A DNA stretch of 33,365 nt from a virus. The translations under genes and the position numbers were made by a program. The notes beneath the pieces are model-generated. The model was not told the origin of the DNA, did no database searches, and saw only the letters and a list, made by a program, of their open reading frames with translations. The DNA is taken from the IMG/VR virus record IMGVR_UViG_3300045988_083077; one strand, written 5' to 3'. Position 1 is the stretch's first letter. Each line of letters opens with the position of its first letter. Shown here in pieces: positions 1,292-33,365 of this stretch.

Positions 1292-2041
1292 TTATGTAAC
1301 TTTCTTTTTAATAGCTTTTGATATTTTGCGTCTATACTCGGATGACTTTTCATCTTCTAGAGCATCTCGTTTGAGGACATCAGATACTAGCATCTGATAT
1401 ATCTCTTCGTTGGTCACCTTTGTATCAGCGGACACCTTTTTAAAGGTTCTTTTTATATAATTAATAACATCATCGGAAAGAATTATTTGAGCCAACATTG
1501 GAGGATTAACTAGTTTCTTTTGCACATGGTATTCGGTGAGCGAATTTCCATTTTTGCCGAGGGCTTCTTTAGAGAGCATGTATAGATAGCGAAGATGTTC
1601 GTTGTCAGTAGCTTTCAAATCATGAATATTGAACTCATATACAAGTTCATTATCTACAGGTTTACTAAAGATTATCCGATACACCTTCCATGTTTCTCCA
1701 TTAGTTAGCACAACCCAATCAATGCCAGCATTTGAACCATAATCGGTGGCCTGCTTAAGGTGATTATATTTTAAGTTAGTACCTATTGATTTGACCTCTA
1801 TTAGGAGTTTTACTTCTTCATTTAATCTTATTGCTAAATCACAAAAAGTCTTTTTTATAGCAAATTCAGATGTTATATCGTCATATTTGTCGTAACCAAA
1901 AATATCTGAAAGCATATCAACGATAATTGTGACAGTGTCACTTTCGTTCAGATCTTGCTTCTCTGCTTTAGTCAAAATGGGTTTGTACTTTTTTAACCCA
2001 TCTGCAAATCTTGATTTTACTTTAACTGGAACTGTTGCCAT
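1292..2041 (-). CDS. Stand-alone PD-(D/E)xK nuclease-fold protein resembling the type I restriction enzyme HsdR N-terminal domain (HSDR_N-like)
   Basis: 249-aa ORF. NESDTVTIIVDML...CDLAI...LLIEVKS...WVVLTNG matches the HSDR_N pattern, with D68 and E82-x-K84 as the nuclease-type core. It starts 3 nt after the repressor stop, so it is probably co-transcribed. Local G+C is low. Confidence 0.6.
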   Translation of the reverse strand: MATVPVKVKSRFADGLKKYKPILTKAEKQDLNESDTVTIIVDMLSDIFGYDKYDDITSEFAIKKTFCDLAIRLNEEVKLLIEVKSIGTNLKYNHLKQATDYGSNAGIDWVVLTNGETWKVYRIIFSKPVDNELVYEFNIHDLKATDNEHLRYLYMLSKEALGKNGNSLTEYHVQKKLVNPPMLAQIILSDDVINYIKRTFKKVSADTKVTNEEIYQMLVSDVLKRDALEDEKSSEYRRKISKAIKKKVT

Positions 2042-5199: not shown

Positions 5200-5643
5200 A
5201 TGATAAAGAACAGCAAACTCTATGTCTACATTGAGTACGAGGAAACTGCAAAAGGAATCATAGTTCGAAATCATCACGATGGAGTTTCGATGCTAATAAG
5301 TAAGAAGAACACAGATCAAGAAATAAGGCAGTTCAAACAAGAAATCATAGATGACATAGTCGAACTTATGTCAAATGTCCACATTAAAGAATGCAAGGTA
5401 TGTCACAAAAAATACTACACACAGTATATGCAGCAACGCAACTGCTCAAAGAAATGTAGCGAAGAGGCACAAAGAGAAAGCGTACGCAGATGCTATCAGG
5501 CAACAAAAGAAAAGGAAAACATCGGAACGGCCTCAAACAATGAGAATCTCGACAGAGAAATAGCGGCCGCAGACGCAGAAGGCATTTCGTACGGAAAGCG
5601 AAAGGCACGCGAATTTGCGAAGACAGTAAGGGTAGAAATATGA
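5200..5643 (+). CDS. Hypothetical protein with a zinc-ribbon-like motif
   Basis: ATG at 5200 lies 7 nt after AGGAGG; the track start at 5197 is TTG. CKVCHKK...CSKKC is present. Confidence 0.65.
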   Translation: MIKNSKLYVYIEYEETAKGIIVRNHHDGVSMLISKKNTDQEIRQFKQEIIDDIVELMSNVHIKECKVCHKKYYTQYMQQRNCSKKCSEEAQRESVRRCYQATKEKENIGTASNNENLDREIAAADAEGISYGKRKAREFAKTVRVEI

Positions 5644-7194
5644 AATTCATTGATTTTTTTAGCGGTGTGGGGGGGTTCACGCATGGGATGGAACTTGCAG
5701 GACACGAGTGTATTGGTCACTGTGAGTTTGACAAGTATGCAGAAGCAAGCTATCGCTCAATGCACACTATCACAGAGGGTCAACGAGAATACTTGCTTAC
5801 CTTACCGCTCAGACAAAGACAGAAGGAGATTTTAAAGGATGAGTATCTTAATGGAGAATGGTACGCAAATGATGTTCGAAGAGTTATCGCAGACGACATA
5901 CCACGAGCAGAATGTTGGTGTTTTGGATTTCCCTGCCAGGACATTAGCATCGCAGGACACCAACACGGATTTAAAGGAAATCGCTCAAGCCTATTTTTTA
6001 GAATTACAAACCTTATTGAACAGCTCAAAGAGGAAGATAGACCCGACACCCTTTTCATTGAAAATGTTAAGAATCTACTTTCTGTTAATCGAGGACTCGA
6101 CTTCGCAAGACTTCTCGTTGAGTTGGACAAAATTGGGTACGATGCGGAGTGGGAAGTTATCAACTCGAAACACCATGGCGTCCCACAAAACCGCGAAAGA
6201 GTGTTTATTGTTGGACATCTTAGAGGAGCAGGTAGACGGGAAGTATTTCCTATCGAGAAAGCAGGCGGAGAAAATTGTATTAAGCAAATAGGTCTTATAG
6301 GGGGGGGTGAAACGAGATAATCCCAATCGTTACAGAGTTTACGATCGTGAGGGAATTGCTCCCTGCCTAACAAAATGTGGAGGTGGAGGCCTAGAGGCAT
6401 ATATAACACAACCATTTGGGGTTGTAAAGACAAGCAGCAAGCTGCAAGAACTCGAAATTGCAAACTGCTTGACAGCGAATGAGGATCGAGGGGTGTCAAA
6501 GCAAGGCCCATCAGGAACTGCAGTTGCTATACCACTAGCATTTTCAGAGCAGTTTGGTATAGACAAGTCATCAAAGGCACCTCAGAAAATAGACATAGCA
6601 AATTGTCTGCTTGCAAGGGAAGACAGCGGAGTAAAAACACACTCTGCAGAGGGAACAGCAATAGCAATTCCAGTCCTAACGCCTGAGCGAGAAAACAAGC
6701 GACAGAATGGACGAAGAATGAAAGAAGATGGCGAACCCTCTTTTACACTAACAGCACAAGACAGACATGGCGTTGCAATATCCGTGCAACCAAATGATAA
6801 AAGTGGGGTGGATGAAATCAAAATAAAGGAAGCTACAAAAAAAGGATATGCTCTTGCAGACAAGGGAGATAGCGTCAACCTCGCAGTACCAAATAGCACA
6901 ACAAGACGAGGAAGAGTAGGCGACAAAGTCGCGCAGACACTAGATACATCTTGCAATCAAGGAGTTGTAGTAGAGCTATACGATGACTGCAGTGTGTGGG
7001 CAACATGGAGCGAAAAATATAACTGCTATCTTGCAATAAGAAAACTAACACCACGCGAGTGCTTTAGATTGCAAGGTTGGGAGGACGAATATTTTGAAAG
7101 GGCAGAACAGCTAAACTCAAACAATCAACTATACAAGCAGGCAGGTAACGGAGTGACAGTTAATGTAATAAAACACATAGCAGAGAGGATGTAA
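5640..7194 (+). pseudogene. DNA (cytosine-5)-methyltransferase split into two ORFs (5640..6320 and 6307..7194) by a +1 frame offset at a G8 tract; either phase-OFF or a pseudogene
   Basis: The first ORF carries motif I FSGVGGF, motif IV GFPCQDIS, motif VI ENVKNL and motif VIII QNRERVFIVG. The second carries RKLTPRECFRLQGW and the motif X-like QAGNGVTVNV. Removing one G from 6300..6307 gives a continuous frame reading ...QIGLIGGVKRDNPNRYRVYDREGIAPCLT... Confidence 0.9.
6300..6307 (+). repeat. G8 homopolymer at the junction of the two C5-methyltransferase ORFs
   Basis: Counted directly: g at 6300 plus ggggggg at 6301..6307, followed by t. Confidence 0.95.
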
Positions 7195-7196
7195 AT

Positions 7197-7436
7197 ATGA
7201 AAGAAAGAGAAACCTTAAACGAATTCAAGCCAGGCGATTTATTTATATATCGAAATGGCGACAGATACGAAATAGGAAAGGTAAAGGGAATCAAGGATGA
7301 CACACATTGTTGGTGTTGGTATCACGAAGGCGAAACTGCAGCATCGACTTCCGTCGATGTAATGCACAAAATCATGAACGATTTTTGCATAAAGAAAACG
7401 AGCCTTGGTGGTGCAGCTGAAGAGGTGGAAGGATGA
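7197..7436 (+). CDS. Hypothetical protein
   Basis: 79-aa ORF with an RBS (agagagga). It is tightly packed between the methyltransferase and the YopX-like gene. Confidence 0.65.
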   Translation: MKERETLNEFKPGDLFIYRNGDRYEIGKVKGIKDDTHCWCWYHEGETAASTSVDVMHKIMNDFCIKKTSLGGAAEEVEG

Positions 7437-8092
7437 TTCCAAATTTTAGAGTATGGGATAAAAACTTTAAAAGAGTATGTCAGGTAGATTTTATAGACTG
7501 TCAAAGACAAATAGCAACATATCATATTAGCGAATTGGCAATCGTCACAAATCCAATAAAAAAGATTATCTTAATGCAATCAACAGGGTTAAAAGATTTC
7601 AACGGAGTAGAGATATACGAGGGGGACATATTGTTGAGCAAAGCATCGGAAAATCAAGAGGATTGGAAGAAATGGCAAGTACATTATGCAGATGGTCGGT
7701 TTTTAATTGACTACAAGCAAATTCCAAAGGACAAACGAAAACGAACCAACCTTGAACTAGAAGATTTATGCGAAGACAATATATGGCTTTATGGATTAGT
7801 AGTTATCGGCAACATATATGAAAGCACCTATCTAATTGAATCTATATTTGAACAAAGGAGAACCAAAATGTTTATGAATTTACCAAGTAGAGAAGTAGTT
7901 AAACAATTACGCGAGGAATACCCTGAAGGAACCAGGGTTAGGCTCATATCAATGCAGGATCCGTACGCACCACCAAGAGGAACAGAGGGAACTGTACAAG
8001 GGGTAGACGACGCAGGAGCCATCATGGTTGATTGGGACAACGGTAGTGGACTACACATTTTGTATGAAGTTGATTTATGCGAGAAGATATAG
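7433..8092 (+). CDS. YopX-family protein fused to a DUF4314-like C-terminal domain
   Basis: The N-terminal part FRVWDK...LMQSTGLKDFNGVEIYEGDIL...VIGNIYES is YopX-like. The C-terminal part EEYPEGTRVRLISMQDPYAPPRGTEGTVQGVDDAGAIMVDWDNGSGLHIL is DUF4314-like. An internal RBS plus ATG occurs at 7868. Confidence 0.65.
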   Translation: MIPNFRVWDKNFKRVCQVDFIDCQRQIATYHISELAIVTNPIKKIILMQSTGLKDFNGVEIYEGDILLSKASENQEDWKKWQVHYADGRFLIDYKQIPKDKRKRTNLELEDLCEDNIWLYGLVVIGNIYESTYLIESIFEQRRTKMFMNLPSREVVKQLREEYPEGTRVRLISMQDPYAPPRGTEGTVQGVDDAGAIMVDWDNGSGLHILYEVDLCEKI

Positions 8093-8112
8093 CAGTCGAA
8101 GAAAGGGAAACG

Positions 8113-8445
8113 ATGAAAAACGAAAACGAAACAGTGATTTACTTAAGCGGAAAGATAACAGGTCAGGCAAACTATAAAGAACTATTTGAAGAGGCAAAGA
8201 AAGATGCCGAGGACAAATTTCCAGGAGCAACAATAATCAATCCTGCAGAGATTAACCTTCCATCAATCTGCGATTGGGATGACTACATGAGCATTTGCCT
8301 GCGCCTGCTCGATAGAGCATGCATAATCTACATGCTAGACAATTGGTTGGAGAGCAAAGGTGCTCGCAAGGAATATATCACAGCCTTTCAAAAGGGAATA
8401 AAGGTATACTTCCAAACATACAGCAGGAGAATTGAAAATGAATAA
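8113..8445 (+). CDS. DUF4406-like protein (nucleoside 2-deoxyribosyltransferase-like fold)
   Basis: ATG at 8113 is preferred over the track start at 8077. VIYLSGKITGQANYKELFEEA...INPAE...ACIIYMLDNWLESKGARKEY matches the DUF4406 pattern. Confidence 0.55.
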   Translation: MKNENETVIYLSGKITGQANYKELFEEAKKDAEDKFPGATIINPAEINLPSICDWDDYMSICLRLLDRACIIYMLDNWLESKGARKEYITAFQKGIKVYFQTYSRRIENE

Positions 8446-8698
8446 AGAAATAGAGGCCCTTGTAAAAATAGAGCTTGAAGAGGCAAATAAGACACACCCA
8501 CAATTTAACAGCACCCACGAAGGGTACGCAGTCATCTTGGAAGAGACAGAAGAACTCGCCGAGGAGTCGGAAGAAATAGAAAAGATTATAAGGACGTGGT
8601 GGGCATATCTCCGCAAAGACGAAGATATAGACATACAAAAAAGACGAGTTGAAAAAATAAGAATCCATGCGGTCAATGCAGCAAAGGAAGCAATCTAG
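8438..8698 (+). CDS. Hypothetical all-alpha protein with an EExxE motif (weakly MazG-like)
   Basis: ATG at 8438 lies 7 nt after AGGAGA. HEGYAVILEETEELAEE resembles the metal-binding helix of small MazG-type NTP pyrophosphohydrolases. The ORF ends at a TAG that is followed by 11 further in-frame sense codons. Confidence 0.35.
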   Translation: MNKEIEALVKIELEEANKTHPQFNSTHEGYAVILEETEELAEESEEIEKIIRTWWAYLRKDEDIDIQKRRVEKIRIHAVNAAKEAI

Positions 8699-8828
8699 GT
8701 GATTGCGATGTGTGACAAGTTCAAGAATTTATAAAAACCTACATTATATATATAGGAAAAAAGACGAGCTCGTGTGAAGAGCATTGCAGCTCGATAAGAG
8801 TATTAGTAATAGAGGGAAAAAACGAGAG

Positions 8829-9647
8829 ATGGCCAAGATAAAACAAGTAGCTATAAAAGAGACATGCGTAGCAGGAAGAACTATTGAGCATGTCATTAAA
8901 CTTCCATCAGGATGTCATAAAGGAAAGAGGGCGCAAAGAATGAATGCCACACCCGAAAATGTAAAGAAAATAAACGACATCATAGCAGAGCGAAACTTTA
9001 GAAGATTAATCAATCATAATTTTGGATATGGATCAGGACACTACACACTAACATATGGCCATGATGAGCCAACACCTGCAGAGGCAAAGAAGCACCTCAA
9101 GAATTTTTTAAACAGACTCAAGTATGCAATGGGAGACGAGCTAAAGTGGATTGCTGTTACAGAATACGAAAATAAGCGAATCCATCACCATGTTATAATC
9201 AACACTTGCGATGCAGCCCTTATAAACAAGAAATGGGGCAAGGGATGGGTAAAGCCAACACTGTTTGATGACAGTGGGGATTATCACCTACTTGCAAACT
9301 ATTTGATAAAAGAGACACAGAAAACTTTTAGAGATGAAGATTGTCCAACTAAGCGCAGATATTCCTGCAGTCGAAATTTAGAGAAACCGATAGTTAAAAG
9401 AGAGCCAGTAAGTATTGCGGCTCTATTTGACGATCCAAAGGCAATCAAAGGTTATTATATAGCAAAAGACAGCATAAGGAGATACACACATCCTGTAACG
9501 GGACTTGATTACCTGGAATACACTGAGATAGCCTTGGACAAACCAAGAAAGTATAAGGTGTGGCCACGAGGAAAGACGGTCCGTGCAGAGGGACCTATAA
9601 AAATAAGAGAAAGGGAAAAGCAGCTTGGTATTGCCGAGCTCGGTTAG
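8829..9647 (+). CDS. HUH-superfamily Rep-like endonuclease (putative rolling-circle-type replication initiator)
   Basis: ATG at 8829 is preferred. Three ordered motifs are present: HYTLTY (motif 1-like), KRIHHHVIIN (HUH) and LANYLIKE (Y-x-x-K). Confidence 0.5.
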   Translation: MAKIKQVAIKETCVAGRTIEHVIKLPSGCHKGKRAQRMNATPENVKKINDIIAERNFRRLINHNFGYGSGHYTLTYGHDEPTPAEAKKHLKNFLNRLKYAMGDELKWIAVTEYENKRIHHHVIINTCDAALINKKWGKGWVKPTLFDDSGDYHLLANYLIKETQKTFRDEDCPTKRRYSCSRNLEKPIVKREPVSIAALFDDPKAIKGYYIAKDSIRRYTHPVTGLDYLEYTEIALDKPRKYKVWPRGKTVRAEGPIKIREREKQLGIAELG

Positions 9648-9653
9648 TGTGCA

Positions 9654-10043
9654 ATGAGAGATTACCAAAGGCAAAAGAATAACAAGTACAACCTGCCCAC
9701 AGAAGTGTATCATCAAACGGTATGGCAGATTAGAGATTATTATAGGCTCAAAGCAAAGGCGCAGGATATTCTTGACGAATGTGCAAAGCTATCTGACGGA
9801 CAACCACGAGGGACTGACATACAAGACATCGTTGCACAGAAGGTTATCAAAAGAGATGCATTCATCGAAAAGACGAGGGCAATCGAAAAGGCGCTCGACA
9901 CTATCCCATACGAATATCAAAATGGGGTATGGAATAGCATCTTATATTTTGAGAGGTATCCGCGTGATGCAGCAGTAAGCACATATGGATCATACAAGTC
10001 AAAGTTCATCTACAAGACAGCAGAGAACCTTAAATTGATTTAA
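9654..10043 (+). CDS. Putative late-gene transcriptional activator (RinA/ArpU/sigma-region-4-like)
   Basis: 129-aa ORF, the last before the packaging module. Size and position are typical for Gram-positive phage late activators. No strong motif was seen. Confidence 0.35.
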   Translation: MRDYQRQKNNKYNLPTEVYHQTVWQIRDYYRLKAKAQDILDECAKLSDGQPRGTDIQDIVAQKVIKRDAFIEKTRAIEKALDTIPYEYQNGVWNSILYFERYPRDAAVSTYGSYKSKFIYKTAENLKLI

Positions 10044-10176
10044 AATCAAAACTTCGGATACCAGGGAAAAAAAACAGTGTTATCATGATAGTGTGGAGTG
10101 TGACGGGATAAGGGCAACGGCACACCGCAATACATCTCTCAAACTAAAGTGTTTGAAACTCATAATTCACTAAGCA

Positions 10177-10206
10177 AAGGGCAGTTTTATAGCTGCCTTT
10201 TGTTTT
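10177..10206 (+). terminator. Rho-independent terminator-like hairpin upstream of the ParB-methyltransferase gene
   Basis: An aagggcag / ctgccttt stem with an 8-nt loop is followed by a T-rich tail. It lies inside the 5-prime extension of track ORF 10149..11087, which argues that the real start is ATG 10227. Confidence 0.55.
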
Positions 10207-10226
10207 GCTTATTTTCAGGAGAAGAA

Positions 10227-11415
10227 ATGAATTACAAAGAAATAGAAATCAGCAAGCTAATGCCATACGAGAACAATGCAAGAACGCACAGTGAGGCACA
10301 GCTAAATAGAATTGCAGAAAGCATAAGCGAGTTTGGATTCATCAATCCGATACTAATTGACAAGGAATACGGAATTATCGCAGGTCATGGAAGAATGATG
10401 GCAGCAAAACAACTCGGAATAGACAAGGTGCCTTGCTTATTTGTTGAGCATCTAAGTGAGGAACAGAAACGAGCATACATAATCGCAGACAATAAACTCG
10501 CACTAGACGCGGGATGGGATTACGACATACTCGAAAGCGAGATGAAAGCACTGCAGGAGATGGACTTTGATTTAGAGCTAACGGGTTTCACGGAAGATGA
10601 AATCGCAGGCATAATCAAACTAGGAACTGAAGAGGAATACGAGGACGACTTTGACCCTGAAGAGGCACTACCTGAAGAGGCAGTCACAAAGCCAGGAGAC
10701 ATATGGCAGATAGGAGAACATGTACTTGCATGTGGCGATAGTACGAACAACGAGGACATGAAGAGGCTTTTAGATGGCAGGGTGGTAGATTTAATAGTCA
10801 CAGATCCACCATACAATGTGGCATATGAAGGCAAGACAAAGGACAAACTGAAGATTCAAAACGACCATCAATCAACTGACGACTTCACAGCCTTCCTAGA
10901 GGCAGCGTTTAAAAACATGGCAGAATGGCTAAAACCTGGGGGGGGTGGTCTACATATGGCACGCAGACACGATGAGAAAGGCTTTTTTAGATGCAATAGA
11001 GCAGACAGACTTATCAGTACGAGAAGTGCTTGTTTGGGTAAAGAATACGATGGTTCTAGGACGACAAGATTACCATTGGCAGCATGAACCCTGCCTTTAC
11101 GGATGGAAAGAAGGAGCTGCACACTATTTTATCGATGACAGAACGCAGACAACAGTAATGCAGTACGACAAACCTGCAAAGAGCATAGAACATCCAACAA
11201 TGAAACCTATCGAGTTAATTGCAAAACAAATACAGAACAGCAGCAGAACAAACGAGATCGTTTTGGATCCATTTGGTGGAAGTGGCACAACTCTTATAGC
11301 ATGCGAACATCTGAAGAGGAAATGCTTAACCATGGAACTAGATCCAAGGTACTGTGATGTCATCGTAAAAAGATGGGAAGAACTAACGGGACAAAAAGCT
11401 GAAAGGCTAACATAA
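10227..11415 (+). pseudogene. ParB-like N-terminal domain fused to a beta-class N6-adenine/N4-cytosine DNA methyltransferase, split by a +1 frame offset at a G8 tract; either phase-OFF or a pseudogene
   Basis: The ParB/Srx-like part is PYENNARTHS...IIAGHGRMMAAKQLG. Catalytic motif IV is IVTDPPYNV. After the break comes the AdoMet motif VLDPFGGSGTTLIACE. Removing one G from 10938..10945 gives ...EWLKPGGVVYIWHADT... in a continuous frame. Confidence 0.9.
10938..10945 (+). repeat. G8 homopolymer at the junction of the two ParB-methyltransferase ORFs
   Basis: Counted directly: ggg at 10938..10940 plus ggggg at 10941..10945, followed by t. Confidence 0.95.
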
Positions 11416-11435
11416 AATGACGGAAGGAGGGCATT

Positions 11436-11891
11436 ATGGCAAAGGGCAAATATGATGAATGGCGAACCAAGGAAGGATTGTTAAAAATCGAGGGATGGGC
11501 GCGAGATGGACTTATAGATGAGCAGATAGCTCACAACATTGGAATATCGAGGAAAACGCTCAACGAATGGAAAAACAAATATAGTGACATTCGTAACGCC
11601 TTAAAAAAAGGCAAGGAAGTCGTAGACATCGAAGTCGAAAATGCGCTCCTCAAAAATGCACTTGGATATGACTATGAAGAGACAACGATAGAGGTCGATT
11701 CTAAAGGCAAAAAACGAAAGAAGATTATAACCAAGCATGTGCAGGGGGACACCACTGCGCAGATTTTTTGGTTAAGAAACAGAAAACCACACTTGTGGAG
11801 AGATACGCGTAACATCGCGGTAACTGCAGAGGATAGCACCAAACTCGATGCAATTATGACACAGTTGGGCGGTGAGGGCCTTGAAGAGTAA
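11436..11891 (+). CDS. terS: Terminase small subunit
   Basis: 151-aa ORF with a strong RBS (ggaaggagg). It has an HTH-like DEQIAHNIGISRKTLNEWKNKY segment, and TTAQIFWLRNRKPHLWRD is typical of Gram-positive phage small terminases. It lies directly upstream of terL. Confidence 0.8.
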   Translation: MAKGKYDEWRTKEGLLKIEGWARDGLIDEQIAHNIGISRKTLNEWKNKYSDIRNALKKGKEVVDIEVENALLKNALGYDYEETTIEVDSKGKKRKKIITKHVQGDTTAQIFWLRNRKPHLWRDTRNIAVTAEDSTKLDAIMTQLGGEGLEE

Positions 11892-16565: not shown

Positions 16566-16813
16566 GAGTAGATCGATGTGGATTTTGTAAACACCGTTTG
16601 TCAGAAAAAGGAGAACGTTTTAAGTGCAAAGCATTTCCAGTTACAACGCCAAGGTACTTTTATGAGAATGGTGGAGAATGTGCTAATGGATATCGCTTTG
16701 AAGTAATACCAGAGAGAGAAGAGGAATATAAAAGCCTGTGGGAAAAAAAAGGAGAGTCTCACCCGCGCTTAGATCCTCCTATAATAGTAAATGAACGCGT
16801 ATCAATAGAATAA
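16559..16813 (+). CDS. Hypothetical small protein translationally coupled to the MuF gene (candidate partner or immunity protein)
   Basis: 84-aa ORF with a 7-nt overlap to the MuF stop and an AGGAG RBS. A CGFC motif is present. A terminator follows. Confidence 0.6.
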   Translation: MVRVDRCGFCKHRLSEKGERFKCKAFPVTTPRYFYENGGECANGYRFEVIPEREEEYKSLWEKKGESHPRLDPPIIVNERVSIE

Positions 16814-17523: not shown

Positions 17524-17548
17524 AGAAGGCACATAGCTTTCTTTTTTT
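17524..17548 (+). terminator. Rho-independent terminator
   Basis: A 7-bp stem agaaggc / gctttct (one G-U pair) with loop acata, followed by TTTTTT. Confidence 0.6.
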
Positions 17549-19192: not shown

Positions 19193-19459
19193 ATGATATA
19201 CGCAGAAAAAGATAACAAAGTCTATGTAATCAACGAAACAGAGAAGGACTACTATCTGAAAAGAGGGTTCAATCTTGTTGATGAGAGTGGCGAAACTATC
19301 GAATATGGAAAAGGCAACGAGCAGGCAATTGCAGCAGAACTCAAGGCAGAGAACGAAAAACTCAAGGCAGAGAACGAGGAGCTAAGGAAAGCAATCGAAA
19401 CTTCAGAAGAGGGAACTGCAGAGGCACCTGAAGAGGGAAAGAACACCTCGAAGAAATAA
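19193..19459 (+). CDS. Hypothetical coiled-coil protein
   Basis: 88-aa ORF with RBS aggagg. It contains an in-frame 21-nt tandem duplication (LKAENEK / LKAENEE). Confidence 0.65.
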   Translation: MIYAEKDNKVYVINETEKDYYLKRGFNLVDESGETIEYGKGNEQAIAAELKAENEKLKAENEELRKAIETSEEGTAEAPEEGKNTSKK

Positions 19460-19472
19460 GGGGGGTGATAGC

Positions 19473-19841
19473 ATGTATGTTGATAAAGAATATTATATCA
19501 ACACATATAGCGGCAAACTCCCTGCAGAGGAAGTACAAAGGTTCATTACAAGCGCAAGCGAGCACATTGATTCTTTGACATTTAATAGGATTAGAGGGTT
19601 GGGTTTTAATAGCCTGACCCTTTTTCAGCAAGAAAAAATAAAAAGGGCAGTTTGCAGGCTTGCAGATTTCGAGTACGAAAACGAAGATTTAATACAATCA
19701 GTATTAGCATCGTACAGCATTAATGGGGTGTCGATGTCTTTTGGCACATCATGGAATGTAATCGTACAAGATGGAGTGGCATTACCACGCGACATATATA
19801 GTCTGATAAAACAGACGGGATTAGCAAGGAAGGTGATCTAA
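19473..19841 (+). CDS. Putative head-tail connector (gp6-like adaptor)
   Basis: 122-aa ORF, the first of four small genes between the capsid and tail tube genes. Assigned by position and size. Confidence 0.5.
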   Translation: MYVDKEYYINTYSGKLPAEEVQRFITSASEHIDSLTFNRIRGLGFNSLTLFQQEKIKRAVCRLADFEYENEDLIQSVLASYSINGVSMSFGTSWNVIVQDGVALPRDIYSLIKQTGLARKVI

Positions 19842-33274: not shown

Positions 33275-33315
33275 GCCTTGAAAAGTGTTAAAATACAGCA
33301 TTTTCAAGGCTTTTT
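33275..33315. terminator. Bidirectional hairpin terminator abutting attR; on the minus strand it follows the tRNA
   Basis: A 10-bp stem gccttgaaaa / ttttcaaggc with a 16-nt loop, flanked by an A run upstream and a T run downstream. Confidence 0.65.
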
Positions 33316-33365
33316 ATAGTGGTGCGCCATGAGGGGCTCGAACCCCCAACCTACTGATTCGTAGT
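33311..33365. repeat. attR core direct repeat
   Basis: Exact 55/55 match to 1..55. Confidence 0.9.
33320..33365 (-). tRNA. 3-prime part of a tRNA gene, read as tRNA-Arg (anticodon ACG); the 5-prime part lies beyond the window end
   Basis: The reverse complement reads a-CTACGAA (anticodon loop, ACG) - TCAGT - AGGTT (variable loop) - GGGGG TTCGAGC CCCTC (T arm) - ATGGCGC - A - CCA. The fold was built by hand. The window stops inside the anticodon stem. Confidence 0.7.

Follow-up and report, generated by a model that had tools for sequence, protein, structure and literature searches.

Variable poly-G tracts as likely contingency loci in two orphan DNA methyltransferase genes of a temperate phage from an uncultured oral host

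Descriptions of phase-variable methylases mostly concern bacterial pathogens and their Type I and Type III systems. The resulting phasevarions depend on phase-variable Type III mod genes or Type I hsdM and hsdS genes and are found in host-adapted bacteria (Haemophilus, Neisseria, Helicobacter, Moraxella and Streptococcus suis; PMC5909438; PMC7383803; reviewed in PMC13076061). In Campylobacter, where a run of at least seven G residues is used as the length cut-off for phase-variable loci, the Type IIG methylases of the cj0031 group carry such a poly-G run within the reading frame, and its length varies between strains (PMC6321876). For contingency loci of phages, experimental arguments are recent and come from virulent coliphages. 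Poly-A runs were proposed to act in this manner in agt and rIIA of T2 and T4, and the ON and OFF states of T2 agt were shown by experiment to trade sensitivity to the Type IV system TgvAB against sensitivity to McrA/BC (preprint, PMC12633550). The same preprint cites poly-G tracts in genes for receptor binding in the Campylobacter Fletchervirus phages, and it mentions one in a methylase gene of Bordetella phage BPP-1 as having been noted without further study (PMC12633550). For PamA, an example of a phage-encoded methylase, phase variation is not listed in a 2026 review (PMC13076061). Here we describe a 33,365-nt JGI/IMG contig (IMG/VR record IMGVR_UViG_3300045988_083077, hereafter called the window), in which three runs of G, named T1, T2 and T3, lie inside two predicted DNA methyltransferase genes, M1 and M2 (Table 1). 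All three runs reach the Campylobacter cut-off, and we consider it likely that they are hypermutable simple-sequence repeats, i.e. contingency loci, through which two orphan methyltransferases would be switched on and off.

An exact scan of both strands of the window for G runs of six or more returned only T1 (G7), T2 (G8), T3 (G8) and a G6 at 19460-19465, and no C run longer than five was present. The scan agrees with a preliminary description of this DNA, which had listed by eye just three G or C runs of seven or more, had placed the G7 of T1 in frame within motif I of the C5 enzyme (it encodes S-G-V-G-G-F) and had given the G6 as the longest G run elsewhere, in an intergenic ribosome-binding site. 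The latter run indeed lies in the ribosome-binding region between an open reading frame (ORF) ending at 19459 and an ATG at 19473. Runs of 7-8 nt are frequent for A and T (10 A runs and 5 T runs), and the two that had been described as sitting in intact frames, A8 at 16743-16750 and T7 at 5654-5660, were both located within open frames. The number of long G runs is modestly unusual. Analytic Markov expectations combined with a mononucleotide shuffle predicted between 0.43 and 1.07 G runs of at least seven, depending on the model, where three were observed (Poisson P 0.01-0.09), and between 0.08 and 0.27 runs of at least eight, where two were observed (P 0.003-0.03). Their placement is the stronger signal: the methylase genes make up 8.2% of the window, and the probability of finding all three runs (3/3) inside them by chance is P = 5.6e-4. 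Furthermore, GGG is the rarest Gly codon (13%), and among 49 Gly-Gly dipeptides GGG-GGG pairs occur at T1, T2 and T3 only.

Both genes are broken in the window, each by a single surplus G. Once its frame is repaired, M1 reads as a C5 cytosine DNA methyltransferase, its translation carrying motifs I, IV, VI, VIII, IX and X in order (FSGVGG, GFPCQ, ENV, QNRERVF, RECFRLQGW and GNGV). T2 is positioned about 20 residues past motif VIII; with G8 the frame reads GGG GGG GGT GAA ACG AGA TAA and ends at 6320, which leaves an upstream and a downstream fragment whose ORFs overlap by 14 nt. The sole start candidate of the downstream fragment is a GTG that abuts the G run, with no spaced ribosome-binding site. 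Deletion of one G at T2 joins the two fragments into a 517-aa PF00145 protein, and addition of two G also restores the full enzyme. M2, when repaired in the same manner, reads as an N6/N4 DNA methyltransferase with an N-terminal ParB_N domain and contains the motif DPPYN and the AdoMet motif FGGSGTT. Deletion of one G at T3 joins its two fragments into a 395-aa protein made of ParB_N and N6_N4_Mtase, and the enzyme is again restored by addition of two G. Automatic annotation lists only the fragments, as a ‘ParB-like protein’ or ‘hypothetical protein’ followed by a short methylase piece, and so hides what would be an intact, switchable gene.

Table 1. Position of the predicted methyltransferase genes, their G tracts, the control runs and further features, with the tract lengths found in 39 related contigs
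Feature	Position	Strand	Description	Lengths in related contigs
M1, C5 cytosine DNA methyltransferase	5640..7194	+	PF00145, E = 6e-60; broken at T2; 517 aa if T2 = G7	
T1, G7 tract	5669..5675	+	in frame; GTG GGG GGG, G-G of motif I	G6 x1, G7 x28, G8 x2, G9 x0; interrupted x4; not found x4
T2, G8 tract	6300..6307	+	start of variable (target-recognition) region; one G too many, frame broken	G6 x1, G7 x12, G8 x11, G9 x0
Upstream M1 fragment	5640..6320	+	226 aa; motifs I-VIII; stop TAA at 6318-6320	
Downstream M1 fragment	6307..7194	+	295 aa; +1 frame; variable region and motifs IX-X	
M2, ParB_N-fused N6/N4 DNA methyltransferase	10227..11415	+	PF01555, E = 5e-35; PF02195, E = 2.7e-9; broken at T3; 395 aa if T3 = G7	
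T3, G8 tract	10938..10945	+	encodes L-K-P-G-G-V; one G too many	G6 x9, G7 x22, G8 x7, G9 x1
Upstream M2 fragment	10227..11087	+	286 aa; ParB_N, methylase up to T3, 49-residue out-of-frame tail	
Downstream M2 fragment	10945..11415	+	156 aa; +1 frame; carries FGGSGTT, labelled motif I	
Control T7	5654		inside M1	32/33 unchanged
Control A7	6837		inside M1	26/26 pure copies unchanged
Control A8	10067		intergenic	38/38 unchanged
Control A7	11603		coding	37/37 unchanged
Protein with HsdR N-terminal domain	1292-2041	-	249 aa; PF13588	
Dam-like methyltransferase, L269	6910-7701		PF02086; relative only	
Dam-like methyltransferase, L271	6916-7707		PF02086; relative only	
Dam-like methyltransferase, L273	6910-7701		PF02086; relative only	
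Dam-like methyltransferase, L292	2131-2922		PF02086; relative only	
Dam-like methyltransferase, L293 and L295			PF02086; relatives only	

Tract lengths were compared across 39 related contigs, the window not being counted, which were drawn from metagenome records and from the assemblies of ENA and Logan. These relatives (L numbers) were found via M2, via the 286-aa M2 fragment of the window (L186 only) and via neighbouring phage proteins that are independent of the tracts; IMG/VR loci were left out of the final counts, several of them being the same contigs as ENA ones. T2 was not found in 15 of the 39 contigs, either because these have a different variable region or because the site was not covered, and the interruptions of T1 in four contigs read AGGAGGA, GGGGGGT and GTGGGGG. 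Overall, an out-of-frame length was observed for 32 of 94 G tracts as opposed to one of 134 control runs of A7, A8 and T7 (Fisher P = 3e-13). A broader scan of 30 of the contigs detected no change of length in G5 (0/98), A7 (0/97) or T6 (0/185) runs. All G or C runs of at least seven in the related loci scanned were situated at T1, T2 or T3, apart from one G7 at the ribosome-binding site at 19460. The comparison of relatives thus shows that the tracts vary in length specifically, recurrently, in both directions and independently of one another. All four combinations of M1 and M2 being ON or OFF occur among the relatives and, because the tracts change independently, natural populations hold all four.

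The length variation is also visible at the level of proteins. The 286-aa upstream product of M2 is encoded in identical form on other public contigs, and the M2 alleles of 395, 286, 249 and 248 aa found in the protein database correspond to G7, G8, G9 and G6, respectively, with C-termini exactly as predicted. Protein clusters of close M2 relatives comprise 113 members of 395 aa, 43 + 12 of 286 aa and 59 of 248-249 aa (some members of the last being 286 aa long), and in the database the intact 395-aa allele and the frameshifted ones (286, 249 and 248 aa) are present in about equal numbers.

Other runs were seen to vary on occasion. The T7 at 5654-5660, 8 nt upstream of T1, is T8 in L282, where it disrupts M1, and at another T7, which is intergenic (17542-17548), relatives have T6 to T8. 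The G6 at 19460 is found as G5 seven times, as G6 six times and as G7 once; since this run is intergenic, its variation has no frame effect and alters the spacing between ribosome-binding site and start codon. L192 (BNJS01001321.1, a 285-kb contig) has G7 at T3 together with three +1 insertions in A/T runs of M2, and is of limited value for frame calls because this insertion pattern resembles long-read homopolymer error. The variable region of M1 (window 6310-7000) is itself modular: the alleles of the relatives are 413-532 aa long, and T2 is confined to one allele family. This region includes an internal duplicated segment (IANCLTANEDRGV...GTAVAIP and IANCLLAREDSGV...GTAIAIP), which may recall the several target-recognition modules that multispecific C5 methylases of phages possess.

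Changes of tract length were found between genomes that are otherwise near-identical. L279, an integrated relative on a 90.8-kb oral-metagenome contig, has no mismatch to the window over 17,429 nt, and L280, a circularly permuted contig of 33.4 kb, has none over 19,152 nt; in both cases the sole difference is a 2-nt deletion at T3, giving G6 where the window has G8. Similarly, L277 and L284 are free of mismatches over 16,942 nt and differ in tract length (G8 vs G9), and L285, which carries G6 at T1, is separated from these two by 7 substitutions in 15.3 kb. For a neighbour-joining tree with 37 tips, the 2.2 kb surrounding T3 were used and the tract was masked. This tree required T3 length to change at least 14 times, random shuffles needing 14.5, and nearest neighbours shared the same T3 length in 16 of 37 cases, where 14.4 were expected (P = 0.36); several pairs only 0.04-0.2% apart had different lengths. 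T3 length is therefore without phylogenetic signal and as scattered as a random shuffle. Tract lengths change much more quickly than substitutions build up in the remaining genome; as a rough estimate, their rate may be a few hundred-fold to a thousand-fold that of substitution at an average site.

The out-of-frame copies were in most cases repaired by the tract alone. Resetting T3 to G7 restored the 395-aa M2 in 15 of 15 complete OFF copies, window included, and of 15 M1 copies that were OFF through a tract, 13 regained full length (429-519 aa in the different alleles) when the tract was reset to G7. One of the two M1 copies that were not restored (L269) is an artefact of the repair script, which altered an interrupted T1. 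With few exceptions, OFF alleles have no other defect and therefore look young or reversible. In 223 more distant M2 homologues (at most 58% identity) the T3 site mostly encodes G-A-V or similar and contains no G run longer than five, and in M1 homologues at about 65% identity the equivalent of T1 is TGGGGGT. Because distant homologues are without long G runs, the tracts are derived, lineage-specific features built from the rarest Gly codon.

Based on these observations, we propose that slipped-strand gain or loss of a single G during replication would toggle M1 and M2. G7 would be the ON length at T1, T2 and T3, and G6, G8 and G9 would shift the frame and be OFF; the window would accordingly have been captured with M1 OFF through T2 and M2 OFF through T3. 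The changes would be reversible within a clone, and OFF alleles are predicted to abolish methylation. Such switching could serve as bet-hedging, in which methylated DNA of the phage or lysogen would escape classical restriction, and unmethylated DNA would escape methylation-dependent (Type IV) nucleases or spare the lysogen the cost of a methylated chromosome. The most plausible benefit is the one raised in the preliminary description, evasion of classical restriction traded against exposure to methylation-dependent nucleases, for which T2 agt provides an experimental precedent. The locus shows three features that are looked for in contingency loci, namely a repeat inside the frame, recurrent length change between near-identical genomes and a change between an intact and a truncated product. 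Frequent, reversible switching within a clonal population would be a fourth, and the otherwise intact OFF alleles and the occurrence of both expansions and contractions lend it indirect support. The preliminary description had suggested that slippage-prone contingency tracts are concentrated in DNA-modification genes, and this idea is now backed by natural variation, near-clonal differences, scattered lengths and otherwise intact OFF copies. It had also considered generic homopolymer error to be poorly supported, a view that holds up in that A7, A8 and T7 runs are stable where the G tracts vary from G6 to G9. Of the two findings that it had named as fatal to its proposal, comparable G/C runs elsewhere were absent from the window and came to one exception in the related loci scanned, and specific inflation of G7 to G8 is at odds with the occurrence of G6 and G9 and with the uninflated G7 at 5669 in the same assembly. 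A more far-reaching model may be put forward tentatively, as a possibility that we would not yet favour. In this model, three switches and four states would form an epigenetic bet-hedging system, in which poly-G tracts toggle the orphan methylases for 5-methylcytosine (m5C) and for N6-methyladenine or N4-methylcytosine (m6A/m4C) at ~100-1000x the rate of substitution per site; all methylation states would be present in each burst or lysogen population and would let the phage escape both types of restriction, and the integrated phage would impose a phasevarion on an uncultured Gram-positive commensal.

Several points weigh against the switching proposed for M1 and M2. Despite the common ON length of G7, out-of-frame lengths are much scarcer at T1 (3/31) than at T2 (12/24) or T3 (17/39) (Fisher P ~0.002-0.003); sequence-context effects on slippage or a residual function of the T2 ‘OFF’ state are possible reasons for this gap. 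T1 is also interrupted by synonymous or near-synonymous changes in the four contigs given above, and selection for tract purity has no significant support, since T3 keeps both GGG codons unchanged in 29 sequences while only about 50% of the four-fold sites of M2 are polymorphic (P ~0.25). Nonsense mutations were encountered in M1 of L272 (C24*, on top of G8 at T2) and in M2 of L190 (in a Trp codon, three residues before T3). Since these alleles are irreversible, loss of the methylase genes seems to be tolerated at least sometimes, and the tracts could be partly non-adaptive. In addition, among known phase-variable tracts G7-G8 counts as short, and some of the near-clonal pairs may represent one sample or one person assembled twice. 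Lastly, the rate of switching, its reversibility and heterogeneity within samples are all inferred from metagenome assemblies.

Taken further, such observations could mean that the tracts are mutational hot spots of no adaptive value, located in genes that can be dispensed with, i.e. that methylases not needed in the prophage state are becoming pseudogenes. The irreversible nonsense alleles of L272 and L190, the T8 frameshift in M1 of L282, the out-of-frame state of M1 in about half of the copies with T2 and the lack of a significant selection signal for tract purity (P ~0.25) are all consistent with decay of this kind. We nevertheless deem it unlikely, as the three tracts fall in two genes of one function and none is found elsewhere in the 33 kb or in the relatives (one G7 at a ribosome-binding site apart), nearly every OFF allele is intact apart from its tract, and G6 and G8 occur on an identical backbone. 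Moreover, T1 and T3 still have G7 as their commonest length after 14 or more independent changes, the tract has replaced the G-A-V of the homologues in this lineage by means of the rarest Gly codon, and the phage looks active, judging by its circular assembly. Miscounting of G homopolymers during sequencing or assembly, with the genes being intact everywhere, would be a different way to explain the same lengths. All of the data are metagenome assemblies, some of low coverage (3-5x), the A/T-run indels of L192 are typical of long-read error, and two of the near-clonal pairs might be re-assemblies of one sample. However, A7, A8, T7 and G5 runs are stable in the same contigs, the changes are bidirectional (G6 to G9) and not a fixed inflation, T1 varies far less than T2 and T3 in the same assemblies, unlike what length-driven error would produce, and two assemblies of the window sequence agree on G7/G8/G8. 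The 44-50% of out-of-frame lengths at T2 and T3 were found in consensus sequence from several studies and assemblers, and the Illumina homopolymer error for 7-8-mers is far below this level. We therefore hold an artefact to be very improbable.

It could also be asked whether G8 is a non-functional state at all. At T2, M1 might be a two-subunit C5 methylase, one part with motifs I-VIII and the other with the variable region and motifs IX-X, and the tract would then toggle between a fused and a split enzyme. Naturally split C5 methylases such as M.AquI exist, and T2 lies at a place that would suit, where the variable region begins about 20 residues past motif VIII and the two ORFs overlap by 14 nt. 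G8 is about as common as G7 at T2 (11 vs 12, with G6 once), and a split enzyme would account for T2 being out of frame more often than T1 (12/24 vs 3/31, P = 0.002). We still judge this highly improbable, because the only start of the downstream ORF is the GTG abutting the G run, with no credible ribosome-binding site, because a G6 allele is known once, as is an allele in which T2-OFF is combined with a nonsense codon, and because nothing comparable is seen for T1 or T3. Programmed recoding would likewise make G8 functional, the full-length protein being obtained by +1 ribosomal frameshifting or by transcriptional slippage on the G run. Re-pairing of tRNA-Gly in +1 is conceivable within a G run, slippage of RNA polymerase can occur on homopolymers, and some leaky expression from OFF alleles is plausible. 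As a general explanation, however, recoding is extremely improbable. Programmed sites are conserved in the shifted configuration, whereas the most frequent length at T1 and T3 is the in-frame G7, and the G6 and G9 alleles would need a different shift. The stimulatory codon or stop in the A site that marks programmed ribosomal frameshifts is missing as well: the shift point has no A-site stop or rare codon, the stop being 5 codons past T2 and 49 past T3.

The window is best understood as a complete circular phage genome of ~33.3 kb, because its nt 1-55 are identical to 33311-33365 and because the sequence of contig L280 continues straight across the junction of the window ends. On the minus strand, the 55-nt end repeat resembles the 3' end of a tRNA (T-arm GGTTCGAGCCCC and CCA) and for this reason probably represents the attP core; according to ARAGORN, neither the window ends nor attL of L279 contain a whole tRNA. 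An ENA scaffold from human metagenome sample SAMEA2738158 is identical to the window across 20,861 nt, and L185, an ENA scaffold of 33,374 nt, carries the exact window sequence, G7/G8/G8 being read in both assemblies. Integrated relatives were found in contigs of 50-285 kb, adjoining a Peptidase_M20 gene or a class-3 FBPase (FBPase_2) gene, and part of the source samples of the relatives are labelled human oral metagenome. One neighbouring phage protein was indexed in 689 blocks of the assembly collection, so that the phage is very common in public metagenome assemblies, those of the human mouth included. A megablast search of window positions 5400-11500 against GenBank phages gave no match, and a search of M2 against one genome per GTDB species gave none above 55% identity. 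The M20 peptidase of the host flank matched metagenome proteins at 99%, its best named matches being ‘Firmicutes bacterium’ (67%) and Anaerovoracaceae (61%). The host is thus an uncultured oral member of the Bacillota, a Gram-positive commensal, and the phage is temperate.

The genes neighbouring M1 and M2 encode SSB, YopX, DUF4406, a replication initiator and packaging proteins, and no res, hsdR or hsdS is present among them. In some relatives, a third methyltransferase gene, which is Dam-like (PF02086) and has no G run of seven or more, directly follows M1; it is absent from the window. Between integrase and repressor, in the lysogeny module, the window codes for a protein with a nuclease-like Type I restriction HsdR N-terminal domain. 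This protein could be a prophage-encoded nuclease or defence gene product, and PADLOC reported no defence-system match for it or for other early genes.

With the contingency-locus interpretation, the M1/M2 locus appears to work like known phase-variable methylases and phage contingency loci. As in phasevarions, a repeat is found within a DNA methyltransferase gene, a change of its length shifts the frame, and methylation is predicted to be switched ON and OFF stochastically. Many phasevarion methylases use tetra- or pentanucleotide repeats. Unlike phasevarions, which involve restriction-modification systems of Type I or Type III on bacterial chromosomes, the locus described here consists of an orphan Type II-like C5 enzyme and an orphan ParB-fused N6/N4 enzyme with no adjacent nuclease partner, and its three tracts in two genes are carried by a temperate phage of a Gram-positive commensal. 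The locus is therefore not a phasevarion in the strict sense, as its enzymes belong to neither Type I nor Type III (PF00145 for M1, ParB_N and PF01555 for M2, with neighbours devoid of res, hsdR and hsdS) and as it is known from sequence variation and not from an effect on a regulon. The Campylobacter cj0031 group has in common with it a homopolymeric G tract of at least seven in a methylase reading frame. That group is chromosomal, its tracts are usually G8-G13 and its host is not known to have mismatch repair, whereas here the locus is on a phage and G7 is the only ON length. The Campylobacter prophage CJIE1 was considered as a precedent and rejected, since its homopolymeric tracts lie in host genes and not in a prophage methylase.

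Phage methylases offer the other comparison. M1 and M2 belong to the same families as the orphan methyltransferases that phages use against host restriction and the ParB-methylase fusions that are common in prophages, and occupy the same place, in the replication module ahead of the terminase gene. Multispecific C5 enzymes are encoded by Bacillus phages SPbeta and phi3T; homologues of M1 at 42-51% identity were found in Lachnospiraceae phages, and homologues of M2 at 50-53% identity in Streptococcus, Ruminococcus and Clostridium phages. The locus differs from these known homologues in its tracts, the 223 distant M2 proteins having no G tract at the T3 site. A homologue of M2 that is annotated as two coding sequences in Streptococcus phage Javan492 (L297, MK448960.1 14220-15386, 50% identity) was discarded as a further case: its split is near residue 311 and not at the T3 site, and tblastn returned a single in-frame piece. 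T2 agt is similar in that a hypermutable homopolymer is located in a phage DNA-modification gene, with a trade-off of the same kind as that proposed in the preliminary description. T2 is a virulent coliphage with a poly-A run that was studied by experiment, whereas the present case concerns a temperate, uncultured phage with poly-G tracts in two methyltransferase genes, known from natural variation in metagenomes. The system bears on whether phages hedge between classical and methylation-dependent restriction, and on whether prophages can impose switchable epigenomes on commensals. What it adds to the known systems is that a temperate phage carries three tracts in two orphan methylases belonging to different classes, that its oral host is Gram-positive and uncultured, and that, at the scale of populations, 44-50% of the copies of T2 and T3 are out of frame.

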